Assembly: GCA_016181005.1 (NCBI GenBank) | Contig: JACPAE010000004.1 | Span: 78,646-142,645 of the forward strand | DNA from: Candidatus Aenigmatarchaeota archaeon | GTDB taxonomy: Archaea; Aenigmatarchaeota; Aenigmatarchaeia; CG10238-14; SCSR01 | Length of the DNA: 64,000 nucleotides | Direction: 5' to 3' | Part shown: in pieces, positions 27,797 to 44,776 of the stretch | How the letters are laid out: every line of letters starts with the position of its first letter | Numbering within the stretch: position 1 is the first letter of the stretch | Position numbers and translations under genes: made by a program | Notes under the pieces: model-generated | Database searches by the model: none | What the model was told of the DNA's origin: nothing | What the model saw: only the letters and a program-made list of their open reading frames with translations

Positions 27797-28804
27797 TCAC
27801 TTCTTTTTCTTCGCAACCCAGTCAGCTACAAACGTAGGCTGCTGCCCAGCAAGATAGTTGTAAGCCTGAAGCGCGGCTTTGCATCCTTCCCCTGCAGAAA
27901 CTACAATCTGCTTGAATGGTGTTTGTGTTATATCACCTGCAGCAAAAATACCAGGTCTAACCTTGTCGCTATCAGGATAATATGTTTCTGCATTATTTGT
28001 AGCTAACACTTGTCCCATTTGATCCAGTTTAACCAAGTGCTTAATGAACTCAGTCTTGGTCACAGATCCAATCTCAACAAAAACTCCAGAAACAGGTATT
28101 TCCTTAGTTTCATTAGTCACAACATTCTGCAGGACAATTGAATGCACAGTCTGCTCACCTTTAATTTCCTTTACAATACTATTAAACAAAATTTCAATAT
28201 TCTCTCTTTTTTTGACCTCTTCAACTAAATACTCAAAACCTCTGAACTGATCTCTTCTGTGTATCAGGTAAACTTTAGGGCATATCTTACTAAGATACTC
28301 TGCACCTTCCAAAGCAGAATTGCCGCCACCAACTACAGCAACCTTCTTCCCTTTAAATAAGGGTCCGTCGCATACAGTGCAGTAAGATACACCCTTAGCT
28401 CCAAACTCACCTTCACCAGGTACATCCAATGTCCTAGGTGTTTTCCCATATGAAAGAATAACTGTTTTAGTTTTGTAAATATTTCCACTAGTCTTTACAG
28501 CAAACATCGGTTTACCATTGTTAGCATTAGGAATTTCTTCTATAACAGTCACCTCTTCATAAATAACTTCAGCCCCAGCTTTGATGGCTTGCTTTAGCAT
28601 CTTATTCATCAAAGGAATCCCGCCAACTGACATAAATCCAGGATAGTTCTCTATAACATCAGTCATCGCAGCCTGCCCACCAATGCTTTTGGCTATAACT
28701 AAAGTCTTCATCGCCCTTCTTGCAGCGTATATCGCGGCAGTCAAGGAAGCAGCCGCACCGCCGATAATGACAGAATCGTAGACAGTGTCAGTAATGTCAT
28801 CCAC
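27797..28804 (-). CDS. trxB: Thioredoxin reductase (NADPH)
   Basis: FAD motif IIGGAAASLTAAIYAAR, redox CTVCDG, NADPH GGGNSALEGA. Confidence 0.85.
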   Translation of the reverse strand: MDDITDTVYDSVIIGGAAASLTAAIYAARRAMKTLVIAKSIGGQAAMTDVIENYPGFMSVGGIPLMNKMLKQAIKAGAEVIYEEVTVIEEIPNANNGKPMFAVKTSGNIYKTKTVILSYGKTPRTLDVPGEGEFGAKGVSYCTVCDGPLFKGKKVAVVGGGNSALEGAEYLSKICPKVYLIHRRDQFRGFEYLVEEVKKRENIEILFNSIVKEIKGEQTVHSIVLQNVVTNETKEIPVSGVFVEIGSVTKTEFIKHLVKLDQMGQVLATNNAETYYPDSDKVRPGIFAAGDITQTPFKQIVVSAGEGCKAALQAYNYLAGQQPTFVADWVAKKKK

Positions 28805-28940
28805 CCTTTGCCTTCAAGATAACATCACACTGGTTGCACACGCCCGGCTTTTTGTAAAGCTTTTTGCATACGGTGCACTCGAAAACAAGCTGAGTATACG
28901 CTCCTACAAGATCATTTTCGTCATCATTTTTTCTCGGCAT
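28797..28940 (-). CDS. small zinc-ribbon protein
   Basis: CTVCKK...CNQCD pair of CxxC; internal Met start chosen to avoid overlapping the upstream glutaredoxin-like gene. Confidence 0.35.
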   Translation of the reverse strand: MPRKNDDENDLVGAYTQLVFECTVCKKLYKKPGVCNQCDVILKAKGG

Positions 28941-28941
28941 C

Positions 28942-29190
28942 TTATTTACCTGTAACGGCGGCAATTGCTTTGTCCTTTGCTGGAATTCCAGTAAACTTGA
29001 CCTTACCATCTACAATTATTGTAGGCACGGACATTATCGAATATTTTGCAACCAGTTTCTGCCCCTCTTGGGACATCGCATCTATCTCCTCATAGTCAAA
29101 TTTGTGGTTCTTCTTCAATTCTTTAAACAGCGCCTTTGAAGCCGGGCAATATATGCAGGTCTTGGTATATACCAACTGAACTTTAACCAT
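28942..29190 (-). CDS. Glutaredoxin-like protein
   Basis: MVKVQLVYTKTCIYCP ... SVPTIIVDG; CxxC plus cis-Pro thioredoxin-fold motifs. Confidence 0.6.
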   Translation of the reverse strand: MVKVQLVYTKTCIYCPASKALFKELKKNHKFDYEEIDAMSQEGQKLVAKYSIMSVPTIIVDGKVKFTGIPAKDKAIAAVTGK

Positions 29191-29245
29191 TTCAACATCC
29201 CTCTTCATAAGCAAAATATTAATTGTCTTTGGTTATTTAAACATT

Positions 29246-29461
29246 TTAACTTGTTTTCGGGAAATGAATAGCATTCTTTGTTATCTGCAGATTACAGCTT
29301 TTATGTTTAGAGCACCAATCTTGGCAGGCTTTGGCTGTAGACTCATCTTTGTAACCAAAACCGCAAATTTCGCATTTGTAAATATTCCTTCCTTTGATTG
29401 TGGTTTTTTCCACCATTATTTTGCACTTCCTTTTGATAATTTTGTACTTTGGGCTAAGCAA
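29246..29461 (-). CDS. small zinc-finger protein
   Basis: CEICGF...CQDWC Cys cluster; 71 aa (start uncertain). Confidence 0.35.
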   Translation of the reverse strand: MLSPKYKIIKRKCKIMVEKTTIKGRNIYKCEICGFGYKDESTAKACQDWCSKHKSCNLQITKNAIHFPKTS

Positions 29462-29793
29462 GCTTCGCTCCTTTCCAAAATTCTATCTATCTCATCTTTC
29501 AATTTTTCTTTTGGCATATATCCTATAGCTTCACCAATAACTTGACCTTTGCAAAACACCTTAATTGTTGGCGTACTCATAATGCCATATTTTTCTGCTA
29601 GATTGGAATTCTCATGGGATTCCAAGATATTTAGTTTAACGAATTTTGCTTTATTTTTATACTCCTTTGAAAGCGTTTCATATAACGGTGCTAATGCTTT
29701 ACACCAAACACATTGATTATGCCAAAAATCAACTACTACAGGGAGTTCTGCTGCAAGCACTTCTTTATTCCAATTTTTTCCATTCACATCCAT
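29416..29793 (-). CDS. trx: Thioredoxin
   Basis: WCVWCK active site, STPTI cis-Pro motif. Start MDVNG sits after GGAGGTGA, with the ATG overlapping the upstream stop (TAATG). Confidence 0.75.
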   Translation of the reverse strand: MDVNGKNWNKEVLAAELPVVVDFWHNQCVWCKALAPLYETLSKEYKNKAKFVKLNILESHENSNLAEKYGIMSTPTIKVFCKGQVIGEAIGYMPKEKLKDEIDRILERSEACLAQSTKLSKGSAK

Positions 29794-30113
29794 TATTTCA
29801 CCTCCTTTTCTATTACACCGCATTTAACAAGATGATCGTGATATTTTTCAACATGCCTGTTTATCGCTTCCAATATAGGCGAAACAGTAGATTTATTTAT
29901 CGAATACATCCGTTTCTTACCTAATTTTTTAGATGTTACAAACCCACAATCTATAAGGCATTTTAGATTATGCGAAACTCTACTCTGTTCAAGATCAAGC
30001 TTTCTATGTATTTCCGATACAGACAAAGACCGCTTTCTAAGAAGTTCTATTATATCCAGCCTTGTCTCTGAACCAAAAGCTTTAACAAACAACTTATATG
30101 AATTACCTTTCAT
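29793..30113 (-). CDS. ArsR/SmtB family transcriptional regulator
   Basis: ETRLDIIELLRKRSLSVSEIHRKLDLEQSRVSHNLKCL HTH; 106 aa. Confidence 0.7.
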   Translation of the reverse strand: MKGNSYKLFVKAFGSETRLDIIELLRKRSLSVSEIHRKLDLEQSRVSHNLKCLIDCGFVTSKKLGKKRMYSINKSTVSPILEAINRHVEKYHDHLVKCGVIEKEVK

Positions 30114-30160
30114 ATGAATTATATATCATATTAAGTATTTAAAGCTTACTTCTCAGCAAT

Positions 30161-31474
30161 CTAAGCACAGACTTCTTTAATCGAATCTTCTAAAATATCC
30201 AAACCTAAATCAGCTTGCTCTTTCGTCAAAATCAATGGCGGGCATATCCTGATTGTGCTGACTCCTGCAGGAAGCATCAAAAGACCCTTTTCACTTGATT
30301 TGCACAGGATATCACTTCTCTCCTCGATGCCATATTCTTTCGTCGACTTGCTTTTCACAATTTCCACACCAATCATCATCCCAATACCTCTCACATCGCC
30401 TATAATCTCATACTCATCTTTCATCTCCTCCAGCCTACTAATCATATAACTCCCAACCTTCTTTGCATTCTCACCAAGCTTCTTCTGCCTCATAAATTTC
30501 AAAGTCGCAAGTCCAGCCGCACATGCCAACAAATTCCCTCCGAAGGTGTTCGCGTGGCTTCCTGCAATCCAGTCCATTGTCTTCTCGTTGGCCACTGTTG
30601 CCCCAAGAGGGACGCCTCCACCAATGGCTTTGCTTAATGCAACGATGTCTGCCTTGACGTCAAAGTTTTCAATGGCCAAAAACTTCCCAGTCCTGTAGCA
30701 ACCAGCCTGAACCTCATCATCGCATAGTAGTACACCATGATCGTCACAAAGCTCTCTGACGCCCTTGACGAAATCTTTCGGCGGCACTAGGTATCCGCCT
30801 TCACCGGAAACAGGCTCGAGAAAAACAGCAGCTACATCTTTATCACACTCGCCCATTTTCTCTTCAAGAACCTCAAGGTAAAGATTGACACAGCCATCGT
30901 GCTCTTTGTTCTTGAAAGGGCAGCGGTAACAGTATGGGTACAAAGCATGCTTTACCGGTAGAAAAGGCCAAAACCTCTCTCTCTGAACCGGCCTAGAATT
31001 TGTCAATGATAAACTACCCATCGTCCGCCCGTGAAAAGACGGCTTGAATGCAATGGCCCATTTTTTGTTCGTATGCCATCGAGCAAGTTTGTAAGCGGCT
31101 TCTACGGCCTCGGTTCCAGAATTGGATAAAAATGCTTTATTCAAGTGCTTAGGGAGGAATGTCAACAAATATTCAACAAACTTTACTGGCAGTTCGGCAT
31201 AAAAATCGGAAAACCCGACATGTACAGCATTCCTTATCTGCCGGCGGACAGCCTTCTCTATTACAGGATTCGTATGTCCTATATTCATCACAGCCACACC
31301 AGCTGCAAAATCCAGATACTTCCTGTTGTCAACATCCCATAAATAGCAACCCTTGCCTTTTTTGAGTACAAACGAGTACTCCCGCGTTAAAGAAGGCGAT
31401 ATGACTTTATTGTCGCGCCCTACAACCTTGAGAGACTTTGGTCCAGGCTTTCTGCACACGAACTTGGGTTTCAT
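30161..31474 (-). CDS. Class III pyridoxal-phosphate aminotransferase
   Basis: GTEAVEAA, DEVQAG and PLP-binding Lys region (ALSKAIGGGVPLGA); 437 aa. Confidence 0.8.
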   Translation of the reverse strand: MKPKFVCRKPGPKSLKVVGRDNKVISPSLTREYSFVLKKGKGCYLWDVDNRKYLDFAAGVAVMNIGHTNPVIEKAVRRQIRNAVHVGFSDFYAELPVKFVEYLLTFLPKHLNKAFLSNSGTEAVEAAYKLARWHTNKKWAIAFKPSFHGRTMGSLSLTNSRPVQRERFWPFLPVKHALYPYCYRCPFKNKEHDGCVNLYLEVLEEKMGECDKDVAAVFLEPVSGEGGYLVPPKDFVKGVRELCDDHGVLLCDDEVQAGCYRTGKFLAIENFDVKADIVALSKAIGGGVPLGATVANEKTMDWIAGSHANTFGGNLLACAAGLATLKFMRQKKLGENAKKVGSYMISRLEEMKDEYEIIGDVRGIGMMIGVEIVKSKSTKEYGIEERSDILCKSSEKGLLMLPAGVSTIRICPPLILTKEQADLGLDILEDSIKEVCA

Positions 31475-31512
31475 ATAATTTAATTACTGGTTTACAAATA
31501 ATTATAGTGGAT

Positions 31513-32532
31513 ATGGAACTGCTCAAGAAGCTGGTAGAGGCCTACGGCGTCAGCGGCAACGAAGGCGAGGTCAGGGAGCTGATCAAAAATGAAATTTCAA
31601 AGTGCGTCGATGAGGTGCATACGGACAAGCTAGGCAATTTAGTTGCACATAAAAAAGGAAAATTGCCACGGGTCATGCTTGCAGCCCACATGGACGAAAT
31701 AGGGCTTATCATTAAAAGAATAAATGAGAGGGGCAAGATTGTTTTCTCCACCGTAGGCGGGATTGAAGTCTCTGCTTTGATCGGGCAGAAAGTTTCCATT
31801 CAAACAAACAAAAAAAACCAGCTTTTAGGAGTTATAACATTGGACCAAATGTCATCCGGAGATTCGATTAAGGAGCTGCCAAGAGTCACTGATTTGTACA
31901 TAGATACTGGATTGGACAGGGAGCAGCTGGCAGAACTGGGAGTCGAGATTGGGAACTATGTCTACTTTTATGACTCGAGATATAGTCTTGCAACAAATGA
32001 ATTTATAATTGGCAAATCCTTGGACAACAGGATAGGATGCTATGTCCTCATCGAGCTCGCCAAGCTTCTGAAAGAGAACAAGAACGAAATTTTTTACGTA
32101 TTCACCGTGCAGGAAGAGATAGGGATGTACGGCGCAAGGACTTCGGCATATACAATAGACCCCTCCTGGGCTATTGCTGTTGACGCGACAACCACGGACG
32201 ACGTCTACGCCACGCCTACAAGATCGCTGAAGGGCGGACCATGCATAACTGTGAAGGACGCCGGCATGCTCGGAAACAAGTGCATAAACGACTGGCTGAG
32301 GGAAATCGCAAAGAAGAGCAACATACCGATTCAGTATGACGTGAGCGAATACGGCGCAACAGACGCCTTGACAATTTCCCTTGCGCGCGGAGGCATACCC
32401 TCGACTACAGTCTCCATACCAGTAAGGAACATCCATACGGCTGTAGGAATGGCGCATGTCAGCGACATAAAGAACACGATAAAGCTTTTGGAATTGCTTT
32501 TGAGAAAGCCGCCGCTGGTTTGCGTAGTTTAA
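31513..32532 (+). CDS. M42 family aminopeptidase (TET/FrvX-like)
   Basis: MELLKKLVEAYGVSGNE N-terminus, AAHMDEIGL, EEIGMYGA metal-ligand motifs. Confidence 0.75.
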   Translation: MELLKKLVEAYGVSGNEGEVRELIKNEISKCVDEVHTDKLGNLVAHKKGKLPRVMLAAHMDEIGLIIKRINERGKIVFSTVGGIEVSALIGQKVSIQTNKKNQLLGVITLDQMSSGDSIKELPRVTDLYIDTGLDREQLAELGVEIGNYVYFYDSRYSLATNEFIIGKSLDNRIGCYVLIELAKLLKENKNEIFYVFTVQEEIGMYGARTSAYTIDPSWAIAVDATTTDDVYATPTRSLKGGPCITVKDAGMLGNKCINDWLREIAKKSNIPIQYDVSEYGATDALTISLARGGIPSTTVSIPVRNIHTAVGMAHVSDIKNTIKLLELLLRKPPLVCVV

Positions 32533-33794
32533 AATTTCTTGAAATAAACCCAGTAAAATACCAATCCTGCCAGCAGCAGTGCAATGCCATATAAGGCAAT
32601 TTCAAACGTGATACTCATCAGCAAAATCGCCGAAGTTATAACACCCAGCAATGGTAAAACTGGGAACTTGCCTATGCTGATAGGAACTTTGAATTCGCGC
32701 TTCATCTTAGGTTTGGTATACCTCAGCTTAATTACAGTAAGGTTGACAATTACGAAAGCTATGAAGATAAGGAAATCTGTAAGGTAGCCTACAGTTTCTA
32801 TACCACCAAGAAAGATAAAAGCAACAGAAATTAAACCCACAATGGCAATTGAAAAGCCTGGTGTTCTTGTTTTATAATTGACATTTGCCAAAAGTCTTGG
32901 CAGCGAACCTTCTGCAGCCATGCCGTATGCAATTCTAGACGCAGACAGAAGAACCAGCAGCACAGTATTGAAAGTTGCAAATAATGCCACTATCGAAAGC
33001 ACGAAGGAGCTCTCCTTTCCAAGAGCACTTCCCATGACATCGGCCAATGGAGAGTTCGATTGTGCAAGCTTGTCAGCACCAATGACGCTGATTGCAGAAA
33101 TTGAAACCAGAACATAAATTACAGTGCTGATAATAATCGCCAAAAGCAGTGCCTTCGGCATAATCTTCTTGGTTCCTTTTGTCTCCTCGGAGAGCCTGAC
33201 CATTTCTTCAAAGCCGATGAATGCAAAGAAGATCAACGCGGCTGCACTAAAGACGCTTGGAAGTGAGTTCACCTCAAAATAATCCACCGATCCGAAGTAA
33301 GGCAGCCCTATAATAATTATCATTAGCAGCCCCAATGACTCGATGATGCTGAAAATTATGGCTAATGTGACCGACTGTTTTATCCCCCAAAAGTTTATTG
33401 CGGAAACCGCGAGAATTACAAAAACTGCAGTCAATGCGATAGGAGTTTTCACTAAAGCATTGAGATAGCCTGCAAACCCCAGCGCAACTGTTGAACCAGC
33501 AATTATTGCGGCGAAAATAAGTATCCAGCCCGTGAACCAAGCAATTTTTTTGCCAAAGCTTGCTCTAGTGTAGACATATTCGGCACCTGCTTTGGGAAAC
33601 ATGCATGACAGTTCGGCATAGCTTAGCCCTGTGAATGCAGCGACAACAGCGGCAAGAAAGAATGAAAGCCACACGGCATTCCCAGCTATCCCGGCAGCTT
33701 TACCAATAAGGACGTAAATTCCGGCACCTAATATGATGCCTATGCCAACTAGCGTCAGCTCAAACAAACCAAGTACCCTTCTAAGTTTGGCCAT
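32529..33794 (-). CDS. APC family amino acid permease
   Basis: 12 TM-like hydrophobic segments; AGIYVLIGKAAGIAG N-terminal motif. Confidence 0.7.
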   Translation of the reverse strand: MAKLRRVLGLFELTLVGIGIILGAGIYVLIGKAAGIAGNAVWLSFFLAAVVAAFTGLSYAELSCMFPKAGAEYVYTRASFGKKIAWFTGWILIFAAIIAGSTVALGFAGYLNALVKTPIALTAVFVILAVSAINFWGIKQSVTLAIIFSIIESLGLLMIIIIGLPYFGSVDYFEVNSLPSVFSAAALIFFAFIGFEEMVRLSEETKGTKKIMPKALLLAIIISTVIYVLVSISAISVIGADKLAQSNSPLADVMGSALGKESSFVLSIVALFATFNTVLLVLLSASRIAYGMAAEGSLPRLLANVNYKTRTPGFSIAIVGLISVAFIFLGGIETVGYLTDFLIFIAFVIVNLTVIKLRYTKPKMKREFKVPISIGKFPVLPLLGVITSAILLMSITFEIALYGIALLLAGLVFYWVYFKKF

Positions 33795-33833
33795 CCATTA
33801 TAGATTAATTCAAGAAAAGATAAAGTTTGATTA

Positions 33834-35150
33834 ATGAAACCTATTAGAACACTCATCATGGGAGCAGCTGGCAGGGACTTCCATAACTTCAACATGGTTT
33901 TCAGAGATAATCCAAAGTACAAAGTTGTTGCTTTCACTGCCACACAAATTCCTGATATTGCGAACAGAAGTTATCCAAATGAATTATCCGGAAAGTTGTA
34001 TCCCAAAGGAATCCCAATATATCCGGAAATAGTTTTAGCCGATTTAATTAAGAAATTAAAGGTCGATTTAGTCGTTTTCGCTTACAGCGATGTTAACCAT
34101 GAGTATGTGATGCACAAGGCTTCGATTGCTTTAGCAAACGGCGCTGATTTTGTTTTACTTGGGCCAAATTCAACAATGCTGAACTCTTCCAAGCCTGTAA
34201 TTTCCGTCACTGCAGTAAGAACTGGTGCTGGCAAAAGTCAGACGTCTAGAGCGATAGCAGAAATTCTTAGAAAACATGGTAAGAAAGTTGTAGCCATTAG
34301 GCACGGGATGCCTTACGGAAATCTCTTAAAACAAAAATGTCAATGGTTTGCAAGTGCGGAAGACTTTAAAAAACATGACACAACAATAGAAGAAGAAGAG
34401 GAGTATCAGCCTTGGATTGATCATGGATTTGTTGTGTATGCTGGTGTGGATTATGGAGAGATATTAAGAGAAGCAGAAAATGAGTCGGATGTCATCATTT
34501 TCGATGGTGGAAATAACGACTGGGGATTTATCAAATCTGATTTGTACATAGTGGTTGCCGATCCACATAGACCGGGTCATGAATTAACTTATTATCCAGG
34601 ATTTGTTAATTTCTTGTCAGCAGATGTAATTGTTATTAATAAAATCGACAGTGCCAAGAAAGAAAATATAGAAATTGTTAGACAACATGCAAAGCAATAC
34701 AATCCGAAAGCAAAGATTATTTTGGCAAAATCACCAGTAACAGTTGACAAACCTGAACTGATTAGAAATAAGCGTGTAATTTTAACTGAAGATGGGCCTT
34801 CTCTTACCCATGGTGGTATGCCTTATGGCGCAGGATCCATTGTTGCAAAGAGATATAAATGTAAAGTGGTTAATGCCCAAAAATATGCTGTCGGCTCTAT
34901 CAAAAAAGTTTACAAAAAATATCCGCATTTAAAGAACGAACTGCCGGCTATGGGATACAGTAGCAAACAAATCAAAGAGTTGGAAAAAACAATAAATTCA
35001 GCAAAATGTGACGCTGTTATCGATGCTACTCCTGCTAATCTTTCACGAATCTTAAAAATCAATAAACCAATCGCCAATGTAACCTACGAAATGGGAAAAG
35101 AAGCTGTTAAAAGTTTGGAAGCAATATTGAAAAAAACAAAGTTTATTTAA
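33834..35150 (+). CDS. P-loop NTPase, COG2403/cyclic 2,3-diphosphoglycerate synthetase-like family
   Basis: N-terminal ILGAAGRDFHNFN and internal P-loop RTGAGKSQTS; 438 aa. Confidence 0.4.
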   Translation: MKPIRTLIMGAAGRDFHNFNMVFRDNPKYKVVAFTATQIPDIANRSYPNELSGKLYPKGIPIYPEIVLADLIKKLKVDLVVFAYSDVNHEYVMHKASIALANGADFVLLGPNSTMLNSSKPVISVTAVRTGAGKSQTSRAIAEILRKHGKKVVAIRHGMPYGNLLKQKCQWFASAEDFKKHDTTIEEEEEYQPWIDHGFVVYAGVDYGEILREAENESDVIIFDGGNNDWGFIKSDLYIVVADPHRPGHELTYYPGFVNFLSADVIVINKIDSAKKENIEIVRQHAKQYNPKAKIILAKSPVTVDKPELIRNKRVILTEDGPSLTHGGMPYGAGSIVAKRYKCKVVNAQKYAVGSIKKVYKKYPHLKNELPAMGYSSKQIKELEKTINSAKCDAVIDATPANLSRILKINKPIANVTYEMGKEAVKSLEAILKKTKFI

Positions 35151-36373
35151 TTATTGAATTTTCTGAATAAATGATTTATCGAATTTGGTGTCACACCTAT
35201 TTTAAAATTATCAAACACGTATTCACTAACATTACCACCAGACACGCCCCTTTTCTTTAAATACATAATCATTTCTTTCACTTTCATATCAATCTCCTCT
35301 ATGCTTTTATAATTTTCGATCATACTAACTAACTTTTTGAGTTTGTTTTTTCTTCCTTTTGCGTATTTGAAAATAGATATTTTTTCGGCAGTCAAAATAC
35401 TTTTCCTATTATGGATGCTAACAGCATCACCATCTAAATAAGCATCTATATTCAATTTTCTCAGAAGCTTGATAATAAACTGTTGGTTTGGTTCACATGA
35501 TAGTTCTATTCTCCAAAAATTATGTGTGCTACCATCCCCATCATAAAGTCCTTGTAAAAACGGTATAATAAAACTTTTTGGACATGAGAAAATCCATTTC
35601 ATTTTAACTTTATCGTATGTGGTTCTTTCATTAATATCAAGACCCAATAGAGATTGAAGTAAATAGCGAATAAAGGGTGATTTTTCGGTTATCCATCTAT
35701 ATTCACCATAAGGAGCTCTTTCTCTATAGTCAACATGATCTTTGATTCTATGAGCAGTTATTCCTAGTGTAATGAAATATTTACATACATTATCACCAAT
35801 ATCCAAATCCCAATCATATCTTCTTGTCAGCGAAATTAAACATTGATTAGAAAATCTATATCCAAGAGGTTTCGAAGTATCACTGACCATCATACCCAAA
35901 ATATACGCCAATGCCTTTTCTTTTAGACCCACGTTTTTATTACGGTTTCCTAACTGTTTTAGTATGAAAATGATTTCATCGTAAAACTTTATTTCCATCG
36001 GTACTTTAATAAAATCAAAGTACGCATGGCCTCCCTTTTTAGAATGAAGGGGCAATAGCTTGTGTCTTATGTTTAGTCTACAGTTAGGTATTGAAGAAGC
36101 AAGAACATACAGATAAGGTTTAGACTTATTGAGATATCTATTAACACAATTTCTAGGTAGTTTGAGCCTTTTTTCTATTGAGATATAAGTGAATCCTTTC
36201 TTTCGTAGTTTATTTACTAGGAAATAATTTTTACATCTTTTCATATGAATTGCATAAAACTCCCCAGAGGTAAGATCACTGTAAAAATAAAGATTCTTCA
36301 ATCTTCTTTCGACATCTTCCCACGAGTTAAACTTGTTCATATGAAACACCTTATAACTTCTATCGTATATCAA
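35147..36373 (-). CDS. Free-standing double-motif LAGLIDADG homing endonuclease-like protein
   Basis: Two LAGLIDADG-type motifs (LAYILGMMVSDTS and FLQGLYDGDGSTH) about 110 aa apart; AT-rich gene; 408 aa. Confidence 0.6.
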   Translation of the reverse strand: MIYDRSYKVFHMNKFNSWEDVERRLKNLYFYSDLTSGEFYAIHMKRCKNYFLVNKLRKKGFTYISIEKRLKLPRNCVNRYLNKSKPYLYVLASSIPNCRLNIRHKLLPLHSKKGGHAYFDFIKVPMEIKFYDEIIFILKQLGNRNKNVGLKEKALAYILGMMVSDTSKPLGYRFSNQCLISLTRRYDWDLDIGDNVCKYFITLGITAHRIKDHVDYRERAPYGEYRWITEKSPFIRYLLQSLLGLDINERTTYDKVKMKWIFSCPKSFIIPFLQGLYDGDGSTHNFWRIELSCEPNQQFIIKLLRKLNIDAYLDGDAVSIHNRKSILTAEKISIFKYAKGRKNKLKKLVSMIENYKSIEEIDMKVKEMIMYLKKRGVSGGNVSEYVFDNFKIGVTPNSINHLFRKFNN

Positions 36374-36447
36374 TTAGTTACGTTACTATATAAAGCTTTC
36401 GGAGGGGTTCATTTCCCACATCATTAACAACATTTAAATCCTTTGCT

Positions 36448-37152
36448 ATGCTCTATTTAACTATGACAACAACCAGCCAGCTATACCTGCCAATAAAAGG
36501 CATGCAATACTCAGTTATACCGGAAGTGTCTCTTCTTGGAAAAGACTTGTGGGAAGCGCAATTATACGCCCAGGATAATGGACTGGTAGTCTTGTCTTCT
36601 CCTGACATAAACAGGCTGGCAAGAGCCGTAAAGGGCGACAATCCAGACAGGCAATTCCTAAGATACGCAAGGGAACAGGCTGAAAAGCAAGGAACTTCAT
36701 TAAACGACAACGACGCAAAAGACGGATATAAACGGCTTCATGACGGATTATGGAAACAATACGTTGCTATAGCAAGGGAAATTCTTGTATGGACAAGAGA
36801 CGCACAACCTATTAATCACCCCATGATTGTTTTGAAAGATATGCCTGTAACGTCCCATCTAATAACGGACTATAGAGTTGAAAAGCAGGGCGACGGCTAT
36901 AGAATAGTCGAAGCTGTTGTAACGTCAGCCAACTGGATGAAAGAGGACGGGGCAATAACTCCTGAAATGGCACAATTGTTAGGCGCCGAACCCAATACAC
37001 ATGTCTGGACAAATCCAAATCCTGATTATGAAAATGGACTGAGGGCTCTCGGGTGGGACTTCAGGGGCCGTGAGAGGCCGTACCTGGTCTCGGACTGGGA
37101 GCCTTGGGACAGGAACTCCTATGGGGGTTCGCTTTTGGGTAGAAGGCTGTAA
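36448..37152 (+). CDS. DGR target (variable) protein; VR occupies the last 33 or so codons
   Basis: 3' end (37045-37143) matches the template repeat at all non-adenine positions; higher GC than neighbouring genes. Confidence 0.75.
   Translation: MLYLTMTTTSQLYLPIKGMQYSVIPEVSLLGKDLWEAQLYAQDNGLVVLSSPDINRLARAVKGDNPDRQFLRYAREQAEKQGTSLNDNDAKDGYKRLHDGLWKQYVAIAREILVWTRDAQPINHPMIVLKDMPVTSHLITDYRVEKQGDGYRIVEAVVTSANWMKEDGAITPEMAQLLGAEPNTHVWTNPNPDYENGLRALGWDFRGRERPYLVSDWEPWDRNSYGGSLLGRRL
37045..37143 (+). repeat. DGR variable repeat (VR)
   Basis: Aligns to TR 37389-37517; all 16 internal mismatches fall where TR has A. TR AAC/AAT codons correspond to GAC/TAC/GTC/TAT/GGT in VR. Confidence 0.8.
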
Positions 37153-37244
37153 GCTGTAAATGAAACATTAACAATTAGATTTATTCTATAAATCATAATT
37201 CTATATTCCTGGGCTATTGCTGGACAATGATGAAGGCAATGTCT

Positions 37245-37342
37245 GGGCTACACGCCTGTCCATAGCGCATTAGGGCTTTTTCCGTTTGGCCATGAAATAC
37301 AGAGGCGACAGATAGTAGCTATGACGGATGACATGACTAGTG
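37245..37342. repeat. Conserved ~98-nt element, copy A (between VR and TR); possible structured ncRNA or cis element
   Basis: About 95% identical to 47348-47446 (4 differences counted by eye). Confidence 0.6.
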
Positions 37343-37388
37343 CGAAACCTGAAGCTTCAGTGAAAACTTGGTGGATGGGCTAAGATAA

Positions 37389-37517
37389 GCTCTCAGGTGG
37401 AACTTCAGGGACCGTGAGAATATGTATCACGAAAGGCCGAACCTGAACTCGAACAGGGAGCCTTGGAACAGGAAATCCAACGACCTGATCTCCAATAGGG
37501 GTTCGCTTTTGAATAAC
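37389..37517 (+). repeat. DGR template repeat (TR)
   Basis: Intergenic, ends 20 nt upstream of the RT start. Rich in AAC/AAT codons in the VR frame. Carries two in-frame 15-nt segments absent from VR. Confidence 0.8.
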
Positions 37518-37537
37518 CCAGACCGCCCAGGATTTTT

Positions 37538-38503
37538 ATGAAGACGTACAATAAAATCTTTAACAAACTATGCTCCTTAGAGAATCTTAAACTGGCATTC
37601 AAAAAAGCCAAGAAAGGCAAAAGCAAGAAATGGTACGTAAAGGAATTTGAATGCAATTTGGATAATGAATTGACGAAATTAAAAATGGAACTGGATAATC
37701 AAACCTACAGACCACAGACATTAAAGAGATTCATAGTAAGAGATCCGAAAACAAGGGTCGTTCACGCATCAGCTTTCAGAGACAGAGTAGTTCATCATGC
37801 TATATGCAACATAATAGAACCTGTATTCGAGAAGATTTTCATTAATGACAGCTATGCCAACAGGAAGAAAAAAGGAACTCTTTCGGGATTAAATAGATTC
37901 GACAAATTCAAACATAAAGTTACTAGAAATCGTGAGTTATTAAGGAGTGCTAAAGACGGCAATATGACTGTAGGTTATGCCCTAAAAGCAGATATAAGGC
38001 ATTATTTTGATACTGTTGATTTGGAAATCCTAATGGAAATCATCCAAAAGAAGATAATCGACAGCAAAGTCCTGCGGTTAATAAAAGCAATTCTGGACAA
38101 CCATGATTTCAAAACTAAAGGAAAGGGAATGCCTCTTGGAAATTTAACGAGCCAGTTTTTCGCTAATGTCTATCTTAATGAGTTGGATTATTACGTGAAG
38201 CACAAACTCAAGGTAAAATATTATATTCGATATGTGGATGATTTTGTTATTCTGCACAGGTCTAAAGAAAAACTAGCGCTGTACAGGTGGATGATAGACA
38301 ACTTTCTAAAGCAGAGACTTAAGCTCGAATTGCATCCTGAGAAATCGAAAATCGTCCCCTTACATTATGGCGTAAAGTTACTAGGTTTTCGTGTGTTCTA
38401 CTACTATAAGCTACCACGGAAAAGCAATCTAAGGATTTTTGAAAAGAAATTAAGTATCTATACATTGACACCCAGAGAGAGAGAGAGCATATTGAAAAAC
38501 TGA
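37538..38503 (+). CDS. DGR reverse transcriptase
   Basis: RT motifs including YVDDFVIL (YxDD) and the DGR-specific motif-4 variant PLGNLTSQ (cf. IGNLTSQ of Bordetella Brt); 321 aa without a maturase or endonuclease domain. Confidence 0.85.
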   Translation: MKTYNKIFNKLCSLENLKLAFKKAKKGKSKKWYVKEFECNLDNELTKLKMELDNQTYRPQTLKRFIVRDPKTRVVHASAFRDRVVHHAICNIIEPVFEKIFINDSYANRKKKGTLSGLNRFDKFKHKVTRNRELLRSAKDGNMTVGYALKADIRHYFDTVDLEILMEIIQKKIIDSKVLRLIKAILDNHDFKTKGKGMPLGNLTSQFFANVYLNELDYYVKHKLKVKYYIRYVDDFVILHRSKEKLALYRWMIDNFLKQRLKLELHPEKSKIVPLHYGVKLLGFRVFYYYKLPRKSNLRIFEKKLSIYTLTPRERESILKN

Positions 38504-38613
38504 ATAAAATACTTGAAGGGGTGGTTTGGTTACGCTGCACAAGGAAATACTTACAAATTGAGAAAGAGAATTGTTAAAAGAACCAATAATATGATTCGAA
38601 ATCAAATAAAATT

Positions 38614-39459
38614 ATGAAGTTAGCTGTTGTTGCTTTAGGCGGTAATTCTTTGATTCACCCCAAAGAACGAGGAACTGCCGAAAAACAGATCAAACGTGTT
38701 AATAAGACAATTAGCCATCTTAAACCTCTTGCAAGAAAATTTACCCTAGTTTTAACACACGGCTCGGGACCTCAAGTGGGCAATCTATTGTTTCAGCAAA
38801 AGCTTTCTAAGAAAACTTTGCCAGAAATGCCTTTAGACACCTTAGATTCTATGGTGCAGGGCCAGCTCGGTTATTGGATACAGCAAGCTGTTGAAAATGT
38901 TCTGCATAAGAATGCCGTCACTATCATTACACGTGTGCTAGTTGACAAAAGCGACAATGCATTCAAACATCCTACCAAGCCAATAGGTCAGAAGAGCTGG
39001 AAAAAAATGGTAGCATCCCCCATACCAATTCAAATAATTGATGTGGAAAAAATCAAAGCTCTAGTAAAAAATAATTTTGTTGTTATCGCTTGTGGCGGCG
39101 GCGGCATCCCGGTAATTAAAAAGGTTGGAAAGTTCAGCGGTGTAGAAGCCGTGGTGGACAAAGATCATGCCACACAAAAACTTGCATCGCAATTGAAAGC
39201 CGATACAATAATCTTCCTTACTGATGTGCAATATGTTTTTTACAATTATGGGAAATCAAGCCAAAAGCCTCTTAGGAAGTTGTCAATTGAAAATGCTATA
39301 AAATATCTCAAGGATAACCAGTTCGAGGAAGGGTCTATGAAGCCTAAAATTGAGGCAAGTGTGGAATTCCTGAAGAAAGGCGGAAAGAAAGTCTTGATTA
39401 CTTCTCCTGAGAAATTAAATTTAGCACTAAAGGGAAAGGCAGGAACAGTGGTTGAATGA
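38614..39459 (+). CDS. arcC: Carbamate kinase
   Basis: MKLAVVALGGNSL N-terminus, amino-acid-kinase fold; 281 aa. Confidence 0.75.
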   Translation: MKLAVVALGGNSLIHPKERGTAEKQIKRVNKTISHLKPLARKFTLVLTHGSGPQVGNLLFQQKLSKKTLPEMPLDTLDSMVQGQLGYWIQQAVENVLHKNAVTIITRVLVDKSDNAFKHPTKPIGQKSWKKMVASPIPIQIIDVEKIKALVKNNFVVIACGGGGIPVIKKVGKFSGVEAVVDKDHATQKLASQLKADTIIFLTDVQYVFYNYGKSSQKPLRKLSIENAIKYLKDNQFEEGSMKPKIEASVEFLKKGGKKVLITSPEKLNLALKGKAGTVVE

Positions 39460-40325
39460 AGAAGGATTTGTTGTCGATCAATGATCTGTCTAAAGCCGAT
39501 GTAGAAAAGATTTTTAAATTGGCTGATAAATTGAGAAATAAAAGGACGAATTATCTGAAAGGGAAAAATGTCGCATTAATATTCCAAAAACCATCCACTC
39601 GGACAAAAGTTTCTTTTGAAGTTGCTATTAATCACTTGGGTGGCAATGCAATAAGTTTGAATTGGAACGAACTTCAACTTGGCAGAGGAGAAACAATCGA
39701 AGACACTGCTAAAGTTTTAGAAAGGTATGTCGACGCCATAGTCATAAGGGACTTTTACCATGACCATATAGTTAATATGGCCAAGATTGCAAAGATACCT
39801 GTAATTAACGCCTTATCCCATCTGGAGCATCCTTGCCAGGCTTTAGCTGACTTGTACACTATAAGACAAAAGAAGAAAAGCTTGAAAGGCAAAAAAATAG
39901 TTCTTCTAGGGGACGGCTCAAACAATACTTTTCATTCATTGGTTTTATCATCCGAAAAATTCGGCATGGAGGTAGTTGTATCATGTTCAAAGAATTACAA
40001 ACCTAAAGTTAAAGCAAATTATAAAATCGTAGAAAATCCGAAGGAAGCAGTTAAAGGCGCTGATGTTCTTTATGTGGACAGTTTTGTTAGCATGGGAGAG
40101 GAGGCTGAACAAGAGAAAAGATTAAGGGAATTGAGGAATTACCAATTAAACTCAGATTTGGTCAAGTTAGCAAAAAAGGATGTTATTGTGCTTCATCCGT
40201 TACCAGCCCATCGTGGACAGGAAATATCTTCTAAAGTCATTGATGGTAAGAGTTCTGTTGTGTTTGACCAATCTGAGAATAGATTACATACGGAAAAAGC
40301 CATTTTGCAATTGCTAGTAAGATGA
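39456..40325 (+). CDS. argF: Ornithine carbamoyltransferase
   Basis: STRTKVSFEVA carbamoyl-phosphate binding motif and HPLPAHRGQE; 4-nt overlap with arcC. Confidence 0.75.
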   Translation: MKKDLLSINDLSKADVEKIFKLADKLRNKRTNYLKGKNVALIFQKPSTRTKVSFEVAINHLGGNAISLNWNELQLGRGETIEDTAKVLERYVDAIVIRDFYHDHIVNMAKIAKIPVINALSHLEHPCQALADLYTIRQKKKSLKGKKIVLLGDGSNNTFHSLVLSSEKFGMEVVVSCSKNYKPKVKANYKIVENPKEAVKGADVLYVDSFVSMGEEAEQEKRLRELRNYQLNSDLVKLAKKDVIVLHPLPAHRGQEISSKVIDGKSSVVFDQSENRLHTEKAILQLLVR

Positions 40326-40354
40326 ATTTAATAAAGTAAAAGAATTATTTATTA

Positions 40355-41830
40355 ATGGCTGTTGCAACCTACAAAATGTATATAGATGGCAAATGGGGTT
40401 CAAGCAATTCTGGTGAGACCTATACACGTGTCAACCCGGCCAACTACAACCAAGTTCTTGGCAGATTCCAGCAAGGCAATAAAGAGGACGTTAACAAAGC
40501 TGTAGATGCTGCTGAAGATGCTTTTGAAAAATGGAGGAATGTACCACCGCCAAAAAGAGGAGAGATTCTTTTGCGAGTTGCACAATTGCTTAAAGAGCAT
40601 AAAGAAGAGTTGGCACGAACAATGACTCGGGAGATGGGAAAAGTTCTTATGGAAACTCGCGGGGATGTTCAAGAGGCAATAGATACATGCGAGTTGATGG
40701 CTGGAGAAGGTAGGAGATTGTTCGGAAGAACTACAACAAGCGAATTGCGAGACAAATTTGCAATGACTGTTCGTTTGCCTTTAGGTGTTGTCGCATGCAT
40801 AACACCGTGGAACTTTCCTATTGCTATACCTGCATGGAAAATTACAGCGGCACTGATTTGTGGAAATACAGTAGTCTTCAAACCTTCCAGTGACACTCCG
40901 ATTTGCGCAACTAAATTCATTGAAATTCTAGAGAAAGCCGGTGTGCCAAAAGGTGTAGTTAATATGGTAACTGGTCCTGGTGGAACTGTAGGCACTCACT
41001 TGGTCAAGCATAAGAAAGTCAGAGCAGTGTCGTTCACCGGCCACAAGGATACAGGTGCACAAATCTTGAAAGATGCCGGAATAGGGAAGAAAATTGGCTT
41101 GGAGATGGGAAGCAAGAATCCAATAATTATTATGGACGACGCTGACTTGGAGCTGGCGTTGGACGGAGTTGTTTGGGGTGCGTTCGGCACATGCGGGCAA
41201 AGATGCACCGCAGCCAGCCGTGTTATTGTCCACAAGAAAGTTAAGGAAAAGTTTCAGAGAATGTTAATAGAACGTGCAAAAAAGCTGAGAATGGGAGACG
41301 GTTTGCATCCGAAAACAGATGTTGGGCCGCTGGTAAACAAGGCAGCGCAAGAGAAAGTTGCAAAATACATTGAGCTAGGAAAGAATGAAGGCGCCAAATT
41401 ATCTTATGGAGGTAAAGTTCCAAAATTGAAGGGGTGGTTTGTAGAGCCGACAATATTCACAGGCGCATCACCAGACATGAAAATTTTCCAGGACGAGATA
41501 TTCGGTCCTGTTACAAGCTTGACAGAAGCCAGAAATTTGGACCATGCAATCGAGCTTGCCAATGCTGTAGAATACGGGCTCAGTTCGTCCATTTACACTA
41601 GCAATATACAGAATGCAATGAAGGCGATAAAATATCTTGAATATGGACTCACCTACGTCAATTCATCGACGATAGGTTCAGAGGTTCATTTACCATTCGG
41701 AGGGACGAAAGCTTCAGGCTCAGGGCATAAAGAAGTTGGTTGGACTGGCATAGAGTTCTTTACTGATGAAAAGACTGTGTACATCGACTATTCCGGCAAA
41801 TTGCAAAGGGCGCAAATCGATATAGAATAA
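40355..41830 (+). CDS. NAD(P)-dependent aldehyde dehydrogenase
   Basis: ALDH catalytic region (LEMGSKNP, GQRCTAASR); 491 aa. Confidence 0.85.
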   Translation: MAVATYKMYIDGKWGSSNSGETYTRVNPANYNQVLGRFQQGNKEDVNKAVDAAEDAFEKWRNVPPPKRGEILLRVAQLLKEHKEELARTMTREMGKVLMETRGDVQEAIDTCELMAGEGRRLFGRTTTSELRDKFAMTVRLPLGVVACITPWNFPIAIPAWKITAALICGNTVVFKPSSDTPICATKFIEILEKAGVPKGVVNMVTGPGGTVGTHLVKHKKVRAVSFTGHKDTGAQILKDAGIGKKIGLEMGSKNPIIIMDDADLELALDGVVWGAFGTCGQRCTAASRVIVHKKVKEKFQRMLIERAKKLRMGDGLHPKTDVGPLVNKAAQEKVAKYIELGKNEGAKLSYGGKVPKLKGWFVEPTIFTGASPDMKIFQDEIFGPVTSLTEARNLDHAIELANAVEYGLSSSIYTSNIQNAMKAIKYLEYGLTYVNSSTIGSEVHLPFGGTKASGSGHKEVGWTGIEFFTDEKTVYIDYSGKLQRAQIDIE

Positions 41831-42026
41831 CTAGCAGCAGTCTTTCCCGCATGCGCACATCTGTTCCTTGCTTTCCTTTTTCCTCGATTTCATAACATCA
41901 ATTCAGGGTCTATACTTAAATCTTTAACAGCATCTCTTATTATTCGAGTGCCATGGAACCTGTTGAAGCATTGAGGTATGAATAACAAGTCCGATAACAA
42001 CACAGATTAATTTTTATCGTCACCTA

Positions 42027-43038
42027 ATGTTACATAGCGGTATAATGTACAATCTCGGAGCAATAGGCTTGGGTCATTGGGTAAAGAGATTGCATCATGT
42101 GCTTGAAAAAGGAAACAAGATGAAGCTTCTCAAGGCTGTTGCACTCAAAACTTACGAAGAAAGGAAGGACGAATTGGAATCTTACGGGATAGCAAAAGAC
42201 AGATATTTTAATGTGAACTCAGACGGTAAAATTCCAACCGGGTTTTTCAGAGATATCGACGTCGTGCAGATAGCAAGCCACAATAAGTTCCATTTCAACC
42301 AACTGCTCCAGTGCCTCTCAAATAGAAAACTCACTATAGTAGAAAAGACTTTAGCTGTTAATAGAGACGAGTTCAACCAAGTCATGGAGAATAACAAATT
42401 TTGACACAGTTTTTCTTGAGAAAGCCGATGAGGAAGACACTAGAAGAGGATGGGTTTTTTCGCCTGAACACGGCGGCATATTCATGGACTTGATACATCC
42501 GGTAGAGATTCTAGTCCAGATATTGAAAGCGGATTTGGACGAACTGACTGACGCCAGGACATATATAGTGAAACCTGAATACGACAGCAAGAATCCGAGC
42601 GCAGTGCAAGTCATCTATAAAGTTAGTGGTAGTAAATTTGCAAAGGACGCAGTCGCAACAATAAAGCTCGGCAAAGGCTTTGATATGGCTTCAGACAAGA
42701 AAATCATGCGACTGTATTTTGAAGACGGCACGTTTATCGAGTTCGAATATCTAAACACAGAAGAAGAGCTTGCGACAGGCAAAAGAGGAAGTTGGAAGCT
42801 GTTCAAGAGCGAAGAAGGCGGTGCCAAATTGTTGGAAAGCAAGGAGGTGCAAGGCCTTTTGTCCTACGAGACTCTGATAAACGAGGTTGTAAAAATTCTT
42901 CAAGGCGGAGAGATGCCTCTGACGTTGGACGAGATAAAACGCATGTACGAGTCCGAGTGGCAGTTCCAGGAAATCTCAAAAGATTTGAAGCCGATTACAG
43001 ACAAGGAAGAGATTAAAAAACTCACTGAGGGTATTTAA
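42027..43038 (+). pseudogene. Gfo/Idh/MocA family oxidoreductase disrupted by a +1 frameshift in a T-run (or sequencing error)
   Basis: ORF 42027-42404 carries the NAD-binding N-domain with the EKTLA motif and stops at aaattttga. Frame +1 is open from 42403 into ORF 42484-43038. Removing one T from tttt gives ...NNKFDTVFLEKADEED... read-through. Confidence 0.55.
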
Positions 43039-43063
43039 ATTCTTAATCGACTCTTAATAAAAT

Positions 43064-43774
43064 ATGCCAACTATAGTTGTAGCCACCTCTATCGAGGAAG
43101 CTTTACACGAATTAGCAAACTATCTAGTCCCTATAGAGCAATCCAAATTTTCCCAATTAGGGTGTTACGGAGAGCCGTTAAGATCCAACAGGCAAGTTGA
43201 ACTTAAAGGCAGGGGATCTCTTGTAGGAGACGATGGTACAATTAGACTTAACCTGCCGGAACAGATACTATTTTTCAACTTACTAGACTCAAAATACGGT
43301 CCTCTAGAGCACGGCAATCTGGAACGGCAATTAAGAGCAGCCTATTCTCCAGAAGGGCAATCCTACAAAGACAATGTTCTGGCTCTTTTCTGGGTGTATA
43401 CAGGCGAGGTTGGAATAAAATTAGAAAATGGTCATGTGTTTGGAAGAGCTGTTAAAGTTGAGCCTATACCAACAGGTATATCAACAGGTACTGTTGTTTT
43501 TGAAGACGAATCACAAGCTCAGCCCAGCCCAGGGGACTACAAATTTACTCTAAACAGATCGGGAGTTTATGTGCCTACTGACATAGGTCGATTTGATCAA
43601 ATAGGAGAAGCAGAAGGCAATGGTTATTGGCATGGTGTTTATCCAGACAGCCAAGGCAGGTCTGTTGTCAGGTGCGGCTGGGACTCTGGCGATGGGGGGT
43701 TTGGCGCGGATGCGTACGGGCTGTTGGTCAGGGCCGTCGCTACCACTCTGGGTACGTGGAGAAAGGCAGCTTAA
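43064..43774 (+). CDS. hypothetical protein, Gly/Trp-rich C-terminus (paralog family with 36448 and 46688)
   Basis: GNGYWHGVYPDSQGRSVVRCGWDSGDGG tail resembles the C-termini of the DGR target and ORF 46688; GC-rich. Confidence 0.4.
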   Translation: MPTIVVATSIEEALHELANYLVPIEQSKFSQLGCYGEPLRSNRQVELKGRGSLVGDDGTIRLNLPEQILFFNLLDSKYGPLEHGNLERQLRAAYSPEGQSYKDNVLALFWVYTGEVGIKLENGHVFGRAVKVEPIPTGISTGTVVFEDESQAQPSPGDYKFTLNRSGVYVPTDIGRFDQIGEAEGNGYWHGVYPDSQGRSVVRCGWDSGDGGFGADAYGLLVRAVATTLGTWRKAA

Positions 43775-43828
43775 TCACTCTTTTGTTTATTTGAAATATC
43801 TTTTTGACAATGTACGAGATTGATTATT

Positions 43829-44776
43829 ATGAAAGTTGGACTTGTAGGCTTGGGAAGAATGGGAACAGACATAGCCAAACGGCTTGTTAATGGCGGTCAT
43901 GAAGTTTTTGTCTGGGGAAGAAGTGATAAAGTTTTCAAGAATGCCGAAGAAGTAGGAGCTAGGGGAACAACAGACATGCAAGAATTCTTTAACCAGTTGC
44001 CCTCACCCAGAATTATATGGTTGATGGTTACTTCTGACGCGGTCGATGAAGTGTTGCAAAAGACAATGCCATATTTGAGCAAAGGCGATATAGTTGTTGA
44101 CGGCGGCAACTCTTTTTTCAAAGACTCCATAAGGCGTGCAAGCGAATTGAAAGACAAGGGAATTAATTTTCTTGATGTGGGCACGAGCGGCGGAATCGAG
44201 GGCGAGGAAATCGGCTATTGCATCATGGTCGGCGGCGAAAAAGAAATATTCCATAAAATCGAGCCGATACTGCAGAAGATTGCTACCAAAGACGGCTATG
44301 GCTATGTCGGCAAGTCCGGCGCCGGCCATTTCGCCAAGATGGTGCACAACGGAATCGAATACGGCATGATGGAATCGATAGGCGAAGGGGCGGCTATGCT
44401 GAAAAATTCCCAGTTTGATTTTGACCTCCGCGAAGTTTTCAGAATATACAGCGCGAAATCAATCATCGACTCGAGGCTTGTGAGCTGGACTTTGAATGAA
44501 TTAAGGGAAAATCCGGATCTTTCCGGCATCTCCTCGATAATAGGCTCTGGAGGAAGCGGAGAAAAAATTGTTGGCGAAGGCCACTGGACTGTTCAGACAG
44601 CTAAAGAGATGGGCATAGACGTGCCGGCCATAGAGGCTGCAGTCAGGGTAAGGGATTCGTCCGACAAGGATTCTGAAAGCTCGCCGTCCGGCTTTAGAAA
44701 CAAGGTAGTTGCTGCTATGCGCTGGCAATTCGGCCAGCATCCTGTTAAAAAGGATAAGCCGAAGGAAAACGAATGA
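43829..44776 (+). CDS. 6-phosphogluconate dehydrogenase-like NAD(P)-binding protein (short, decarboxylating-type)
   Basis: MKVGLVGLGRMGTDIAKRL Rossmann N-terminus; HNGIEYGMM motif. Confidence 0.7.
   Translation: MKVGLVGLGRMGTDIAKRLVNGGHEVFVWGRSDKVFKNAEEVGARGTTDMQEFFNQLPSPRIIWLMVTSDAVDEVLQKTMPYLSKGDIVVDGGNSFFKDSIRRASELKDKGINFLDVGTSGGIEGEEIGYCIMVGGEKEIFHKIEPILQKIATKDGYGYVGKSGAGHFAKMVHNGIEYGMMESIGEGAAMLKNSQFDFDLREVFRIYSAKSIIDSRLVSWTLNELRENPDLSGISSIIGSGGSGEKIVGEGHWTVQTAKEMGIDVPAIEAAVRVRDSSDKDSESSPSGFRNKVVAAMRWQFGQHPVKKDKPKENE

Follow-up and report, generated by a model that had tools for sequence, protein, structure and literature searches.

A free-standing double-LAGLIDADG gene with helix-turn-helix modules at either end, beside an arcE-like gene in an Aenigmatarchaeota archaeon

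Background

What is a gene with two LAGLIDADG motifs doing by itself, between other genes of an archaeal chromosome? The question is raised by a 64,000-nt stretch of DNA from a Candidatus Aenigmatarchaeota archaeon (GenBank assembly GCA_016181005.1, contig JACPAE010000004.1, positions 78,646 to 142,645 of the forward strand), the whole of which is called the window here and is numbered from its first letter. An earlier account made from the letters alone, the sequence-only reading, had recognized such a gene next to a diversity-generating retroelement (DGR) and had left it between an active homing endonuclease and a domesticated DNA-binding derivative. We favor the former, since the LAGLIDADG fold and both candidate catalytic Asp residues are kept, and give a little better than an even chance to the gene being a free-standing homing endonuclease that spreads by intronless homing; cleavage, target site and mobility are what we infer in that reading.

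LAGLIDADG enzymes are the classic meganucleases, and those known from archaea come mainly from inteins and the introns of rRNA genes. The gene described here would extend their lifestyles to free-standing archaeal chromosomal genes, in a family whose member in the window is missed by Pfam.

Results

Fold and domain architecture

On its predicted structure, the window protein is a two-domain monomeric LAGLIDADG endonuclease with a helix-turn-helix (HTH) module fused at either end. The gene and its parts are as follows.

35147..36340, minus strand: endonuclease gene, stop codon included, for the 397-aa HTH / double-LAGLIDADG / HTH protein
36095..36256, minus strand: N-terminal helical HTH module, YAIHMKRCKNYF...KPYLYVLAS, from model helices, HTH matches of homologs and tandem repeats
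35381..35932, minus strand: LAGLIDADG core, from AlphaFold (AF2) secondary structure, Foldseek matches and LAGLIDADG_3 matches in 19/28 relatives
35873..35911, minus strand: LAGLIDADG motif 1, LAYILGMMVSDTS, candidate catalytic Asp codon at 35879-35881
35522..35560, minus strand: LAGLIDADG motif 2, FLQGLYDGDGSTH, candidate catalytic Asp codon at 35534-35536
35153..35287, minus strand: C-terminal three-helix HTH, MKVKEMIMYLKKRGVSGGNVSEYVF...HLFRKFN, from model helices 352-396 and HTH matches of homologs

Used as a single query, the protein matched the Pfam family LAGLIDADG_3 at E 0.031 with 15 bits (cutoff 22.5), in the region of motif 2 only, and a single-sequence phmmer search of the PDB returned no match. 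A 28-sequence profile searched against the PDB gave weak HTH matches and sub-significant intein matches only. LAGLIDADG_3 was matched by 19 of the 28 aligned relatives at E<=0.01 (best 1.3e-8), several of them above the cutoff; by these profile matches it is the family that belongs to LAGLIDADG_3, by transitivity, and not the window sequence alone. The fold was established by structure prediction and Foldseek, where comparison of sequences by itself had been insufficient. The AF2 model built on the alignment of 28 relatives is very confident and compact (predicted local distance difference test, pLDDT, 95; predicted template modeling score, pTM, 0.92). Its 40 best Foldseek matches in the PDB are all LAGLIDADG enzymes (probability 1.00, E 6e-6 to 9e-4) and include PI-SceI, the TliVMA intein, I-DmoI, PI-PfuI, E-DreI, I-SceI and the bI3 maturase. 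Among viral proteins, the model matches intein endonucleases from giant viruses and LAGLIDADG endonucleases from phages.

The modeled chain begins with an HTH module and a beta-hairpin (~130 residues together), continues with the double LAGLIDADG core and ends in the C-terminal three-helix HTH. The two motifs are separated by 117 residues, as is usual in LAGLIDADG proteins with two domains. In homologs the N-terminal module matches HTH_23, Sigma70_r4 and HTH_7, with a weak profile match to the HTH of IS21-type transposases, while the C-terminal domain matches Sigma70_r4_2, HTH_7 and HTH_SB and has a weak profile match to the HTH of the Sleeping Beauty transposase. Longer relatives, of 500-1500 aa, carry the whole module at the C-terminus, behind 1-4 tandem copies of the N-terminal HTH module. 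The double-motif description of the sequence-only reading is upheld by the modeled structure and by the profile matches of relatives, and both motifs translate exactly at their coordinates; the HTH domains on either side and the large unannotated family had been overlooked.

Active-site conservation

Conservation of the active site was counted in an alignment of 111 family sequences with 22-56% identity, and the residues to look for were taken from the review of Taylor and Stoddard (PMC3384342). The candidate catalytic residues are D165 and D280 in the numbering of the 408-aa open reading frame (ORF), equivalent to D154 and D269 in the 397-aa protein, and on the sequence each falls at G+5 of its motif. 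Their counterparts at the C-terminal end of the LAGLIDADG helix are D20/21 and E117 in I-DmoI and D20 in I-CreI. Each is kept in 109 of the 111 members (98%), including the window protein; P0047 has lost both. Motif 1 is non-canonical, with S-D-[GAST] in the family and SDT in the window protein, and its S is the family consensus (91/111). Basic residues near the active sites of I-DmoI are K42/43 and K120/130 (PMC3384342). In domain 1 of the family, the two positions after beta2 carry K or R in 87/111 and 70/111 members, in the register of I-DmoI Q42/K43, an assignment made by sequence register only. On these counts the active site of the family looks maintained, with the second half-site uncertain. 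A missing LAGLIDADG fold or the loss of both acidic residues had been named by the earlier account as grounds for giving up its interpretation; the fold is confirmed and both Asp residues are present.

Gene model and free-standing position

The ORF listing of the window gives 35147..36373 on the minus strand, 408 aa from a TTG start. Homologs of the 397-aa protein down to E 1e-135, together with an identical deposited protein (P0001, a 397-aa hypothetical protein of a Candidatus Aenigmarchaeota metagenome-assembled genome, MAG), indicate that the ORF is a real gene. Its true start is most likely the ATG at 36340, because the NCBI model P0001 and the orthologs begin at that Met and because GGTG and TTTATATA lie upstream of it. 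The 408-aa frame reported earlier thus exists and is probably 11 codons too long. GGTG stands ~7 nt upstream of the ATG, and with the TATA-box-like element it forms a candidate promoter and ribosome-binding site of the gene's own.

36373, minus strand: alternative TTG start, which yields the 408-aa ORF of the sequence-only reading
36387..36394, minus strand: TATA-box-like TTTATATA, read from the sequence, ~50 nt upstream of ATG 36340

The gene is free-standing and intergenic. On its downstream side, its stop codon overlaps that of a convergent arcE-like gene in a palindromic TTAA (35147-35150); on its upstream side, the spacer to the DGR target gene measures 107 bp from ATG 36340, which replaces the 75 bp given before. 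The protein has no Hint or intein domain, an RNA family scan of 33000-39000 gave no match to an intron or rRNA family, and there is no tRNA within 28000-44000. Residence in a classical intron or intein is therefore not what is seen here, and the earlier placement of the gene between genes, outside any intron, intein or rRNA gene, is confirmed. A maturase role was rejected for lack of an intron at the locus, and an intein origin of the window copy for lack of Hint domains. The gene is AT-rich, as had been noticed, with a guanine-plus-cytosine (GC) content of 30.9% against 42.5% in the rest of the window, 11.6 points lower. It is present as a single copy in the window and in its orthologous loci.

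Orthologous loci

33834..35150, plus strand: arcE-like (arginine synthetase family) gene, 438 aa, the convergent partner, whose stop overlaps the endonuclease stop at TTAA 35147-35150

Close orthologs of the endonuclease gene (44-64% identity, five further lineages) all stand tail-to-tail with the same ~430-aa arcE-like gene, the two gene ends ranging from a 2-nt gap to a 15-nt overlap. The other flank varies by lineage and holds the DGR, a Rieske protein, unknown ORFs or ornithine carbamoyltransferase (OTCase). Presence is patchy: among the 80 best genomic loci for the arcE-like enzyme (58-63% identity), no family member was found within 8 kb. These gene-less loci include the two most similar enzymes, both from Woesearchaeota, namely L018 (69% to the L006 enzyme) and L010 (63% to the window enzyme). 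L010 has the same metabolic cluster, but the 1-kb gap that follows its arcE-like gene holds two unrelated genes; a degraded endonuclease remnant was considered there and rejected on that account.

Size, neighbors and distribution of the wider family

An exhaustive HMMER search (E<=0.001) places at least 270 clusters at 50% identity in the family, 62 of them below 1e-30; two word-indexed alignment searches found almost nothing beyond close orthologs. The family is mainly archaeal and carries no annotation in any source searched. Family members lie directly upstream of kae1 in eight loci, near eIF2alpha in four, and tail-to-tail with OTCase; other neighbors are carboxyltransferase genes, a metallo-beta-lactamase-fold gene and an SdhB-like gene. 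One member sits exactly between the genes for ribosomal protein S7 and EF-2, its stop codon overlapping the EF-2 start. The S12-S7-EF-2 gene order in archaea is normally uninterrupted. In a neighbor-joining tree the subfamilies follow their neighbor gene, and the linkage is one-sided, the opposite flank being variable. GC content of the family genes is below that of their flanks in 17 of 21 loci.

Contig VAPC010602568.1 (L103 / L126) carries two family members of different subclades ~10 kb apart, an 878-aa member upstream of a carboxyltransferase gene and a 592-aa member upstream of a PYC_OADA carboxylase gene. Some genomes therefore hold several site-specific copies.

Three members, P0010, P0017 and P0018, have an extra conserved C-terminal extension of ~75 aa (…YNTxYDWxxRxxIPxDVKRKLxxGYxP…, alignment columns ~525-600). 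The N-terminus of P0010 (MNKFNSWKDAERRLK) is nearly identical to that of the window protein, at an overall identity of 34%.

The adjacent DGR

36448-37152: DGR target gene, with its variable repeat (VR) at 37072-37119
37208-37388: RT-16 RNA (Rfam) of the DGR, 89.5 bits
37431-37478: template repeat (TR), 83% identical to the VR and differing only where the TR has A
37538-38503: reverse transcriptase (RT) gene of the DGR, RVT_1 match 1.1e-22

The DGR is complete, and it is a window-specific insertion beside the endonuclease gene, where it sits between that gene and carbamate kinase; the orthologous loci L006 and L093/L094 have OTCase directly where the window has the DGR. The sequence-only reading had joined the two into one mobile or accessory island of 35.1-38.5 kb. 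Adjacency, with 107 bp and divergent orientation between the endonuclease and target genes, would suit an endonuclease that serves as a DGR accessory or as part of one island, for example by targeting or integrating the retroelement, and both the endonuclease gene and the DGR are AT-richer than the flanking metabolic genes. Set against this, a search through 134 further loci, which include every orthologous and distant family locus, found neither an RT nor a DGR target gene, no model of a DGR accessory or defence system in PADLOC matched the endonuclease protein, and the orthologs stay linked to arcE without any DGR. The endonuclease gene is thus independent of the DGR, the island does not hold together, and an accessory role is hardly credible.

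Discussion

A proposed homing mechanism

The mechanism proposed here follows established LAGLIDADG enzymology. The two beta-sheet saddles and the flanking HTH domains would read a long asymmetric DNA site, and D154 and D269, at the base of the paired LAGLIDADG helices, would bind divalent metal and cut both strands. In genomes without the endonuclease gene, cleavage would fall in or beside a conserved neighbor, here the arcE-like gene, and repair by recombination with a carrier genome would then place a copy of the gene in the intergenic spot at that neighbor's end. Each subfamily would have its own site: the arcE 3' end, the kae1 5' side, the eIF2alpha region, the OTCase 3' end or the S7|EF-2 junction. 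Here the homing site may be carried or anchored by the arcE-like gene or its 3' junction.

Comparison with known systems

Among the monomeric double-motif enzymes (I-DmoI, PI-SceI, PI-PfuI, TliVMA), the core fold is common to the window protein over ~196-216 aligned columns, with a template modeling (TM) score of ~0.65-0.70 in Foldseek when normalized to I-DmoI; the match listed for I-DmoI has a TM score of ~0.67 on that normalization, over ~196 columns. As in I-DmoI, there are two LAGLIDADG helices, each ending in a conserved acidic residue, and the host is archaeal. Unlike enzymes of that type, the window gene lies outside any intron or intein, and its protein has ~130 extra N-terminal residues and a ~70-residue C-terminal HTH; motif 1 of the family reads S-D-[GAST] rather than G-D-G, domain 2 is without an obvious conserved Lys, and the sequences are so dissimilar that a profile search of the PDB misses these enzymes.

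The seg and mob genes of phage T4 lie between conserved genes, cut a nearby conserved gene in genomes without them and are copied during repair, and segD has the opposite orientation to its neighbors (PMC2988022). The family shares with them the intergenic position by conserved genes, a nuclease core joined to separate DNA-binding modules and sporadic presence. They differ in being GIY-YIG or HNH enzymes of a phage, whereas the family described here is a LAGLIDADG one in archaeal chromosomes, with putative mobility.

Yeast HO, which uses zinc fingers, likewise combines a LAGLIDADG endonuclease with an additional DNA-binding domain in a free-standing gene that its host keeps at a fixed locus; unlike the window family it is eukaryotic and keeps intein remnants. 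The LAGLIDADG protein HO descends from a homing endonuclease that was associated with an intein (PMC3384342). WhiA (DUF199) resembles the window protein as a free-standing chromosomal gene in conserved position whose double LAGLIDADG domain is tethered to a C-terminal HTH. It is a domesticated protein that has lost the acidic and basic residues of the active site and does not cut DNA (PMC3384342), whereas the window family keeps both Asp residues in 98% of members; WhiA is also bacterial and universal in Gram-positives, and the window family is patchy. No WhiA match was found in Pfam, in NCBIfam or in the Foldseek top 50, and assignment to WhiA / DUF199 was rejected on the retained Asp pair in spite of the C-terminal HTH.

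Homing endonuclease, host factor or relic

The reading as a selfish, site-specific element is drawn from the unrelated conserved neighbors, the subfamilies that follow their neighbor gene, the one-sided linkage, the patchiness, the two copies on one contig, the low GC, the decayed copies and the loss of both Asp residues in P0047; the arrangement also matches that of free-standing homing endonucleases between conserved T4 genes (PMC2988022). A number of observations weigh against it. No target site could be identified, and domain 2 is without a clearly conserved Lys at the expected position (N296 is kept in 101/111). The comparison with related genomes that had been suggested earlier bore out absence at the 80 enzyme loci; the comparators are other lineages with other gene order, and neither a true empty site nor a closely related empty-site allele was found among them. 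The arcE-linked orthologs whose gene ends were found are all intact (the 238-aa P0008, on a short contig, was left out), and the endonuclease has diverged about as far as the arcE-like enzyme, which fits long vertical co-inheritance under host selection; tests of monophyly and congruence between endonuclease and enzyme showed mild incongruence only. The frameshifted or truncated metagenomic copies (~5/40) may be assembly errors. As for spread, a scan of viral contigs gave only one spurious 25-residue match and no family member, PHROGs gave no match, and no vector for horizontal transfer is evident. An origin from phages or defence systems is not supported by the viral contigs, PHROGs or PADLOC.

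The main rival, which we consider rather unlikely, is a domesticated LAGLIDADG DNA-binding factor, a transcription regulator of the arginine cluster or a protein with some other host function, which would recognize its DNA sequence through the HTH domains and the LAGLIDADG saddle, after the manner of WhiA or of a host-recruited nuclease such as HO. The fixed position beside the arcE-like gene within the arginine cluster in six lineages, with intact copies at 44-64% identity, the divergence similar to that of the neighboring enzyme, the single copy in the window and at orthologous loci, and the two HTH domains or HTH arrays all suit a host regulator, and paralogous regulator families commonly adjoin different target genes. 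WhiA is the precedent for a LAGLIDADG domain with a C-terminal HTH (PMC3384342), but it is outside the top 50 structural matches, and both Asp residues and the domain-1 basic residues are kept here, unlike in WhiA. For a local regulator, convergence with arcE and overlapping stops would be an unusual arrangement, and conservation does not extend to the upstream side of the gene. Furthermore, the genes beside which other subfamilies lie (EF-2, Kae1, eIF2alpha) have constitutive housekeeping roles and share no pathway, the gene is missing from most genomes that have the same arginine cluster, L010 among them, and the low GC and the decay of some copies also speak against a host function. The sequence-only reading took conserved synteny to point to domestication, but it does not separate the two readings here, since a homing element tied to one site would likewise turn up there every time. 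A third possibility is a decaying relic, a once-mobile endonuclease gene now fixed and drifting without activity or function. The low GC, the disrupted copies in the family and the non-canonical SDT in place of GDG at motif 1 could be taken in that sense; however, S-D at motif 1 is the consensus of the family (S in 91/111) and not a private lesion, the 397-aa frame is intact with a confident, compact model and both Asp residues, and the orthologs at 44-64% identity are all full length, which indicates purifying selection. We hold a relic to be quite improbable.

Significance

The fold and the enzyme class are known, and the family is otherwise unannotated. In the literature searched we did not find the tandem HTH / double LAGLIDADG / HTH architecture, the free-standing archaeal lifestyle or the harbor genes of the subfamilies. 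We tentatively propose, with more doubt than confidence, an undescribed class of archaeal chromosomal meganucleases in which the core is combined with expandable HTH arrays (1-4 N-terminal and one C-terminal), moves between cellular genomes by intronless homing and is parked at the ends of essential or highly conserved genes (arcE, kae1, EF-2, eIF2alpha). If this is true, free-standing homing endonucleases with a harbor gene specific to each subfamily would be seen here for the first time in a cellular system that is neither phage nor organellar, and they would exemplify how the specificity of a meganuclease can be extended naturally by adding modules. Tandem HTH modules would represent a natural route to extended target recognition, which is relevant for meganuclease engineering. 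The locus also offers a concrete case of how selfish endonuclease genes persist in the tiny genomes of DPANN archaea, and of whether those that persist are co-opted by the host. For annotation, it is of value that the gene is separated from the adjacent DGR and that the arcE-like arginine synthetase cluster is flagged.

The arginine cluster and further observations

38614-41830 and 30161-32532: other parts of the arginine cluster in the window

The arcE-like protein is distantly homologous to cyclic 2,3-diphosphoglycerate synthetase (9sxb, E 1e-6) and shares 58-63% identity with a range of archaeal and bacterial proteins, those of Thermococcus among them. Its cluster comprises OTCase, carbamate kinase, a class-III aminotransferase, an aldehyde dehydrogenase, an M42 peptidase and an amino-acid permease. 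Michimori et al. (PMC11032458) describe an arginine synthetase, ArcE, that fits this gene, and the label arcE-like is taken from their description and from the gene context. The cluster suggests an ATP-yielding pathway of arginine catabolism in this Aenigmatarchaeota archaeon.

At L091 5056-5501 (also L092), the EF-2 gene next to the distant family member P0098 carries two frameshifts at its 5' end, in the GTP-binding region, which divide it into ORFs of 35, 78 and 613 aa in both an NCBI MAG and a Logan assembly; the cause could be faulty assembly, decay into a pseudogene or damage close to a site of the endonuclease. A suspected disruption of Kae1 beside the family gene in L109 was rejected, as Kae1 is intact there and its start had been mis-set by the gene caller. 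At L003 1-594, the class-III aminotransferase is called as 774 aa with weak precomputed matches to Intein_splicing and LAGLIDADG_3, which, if correct, would place a classical intein endonuclease, unrelated to the free-standing gene, in the same cluster. Toxin-antitoxin pairs (PIN/MazE-like, HicA/HicB) are found within the orthologous arginine regions at L001 3390-3982 and at L003 613-1216 and 15134-15582, and the neighborhood therefore tolerates small selfish modules.

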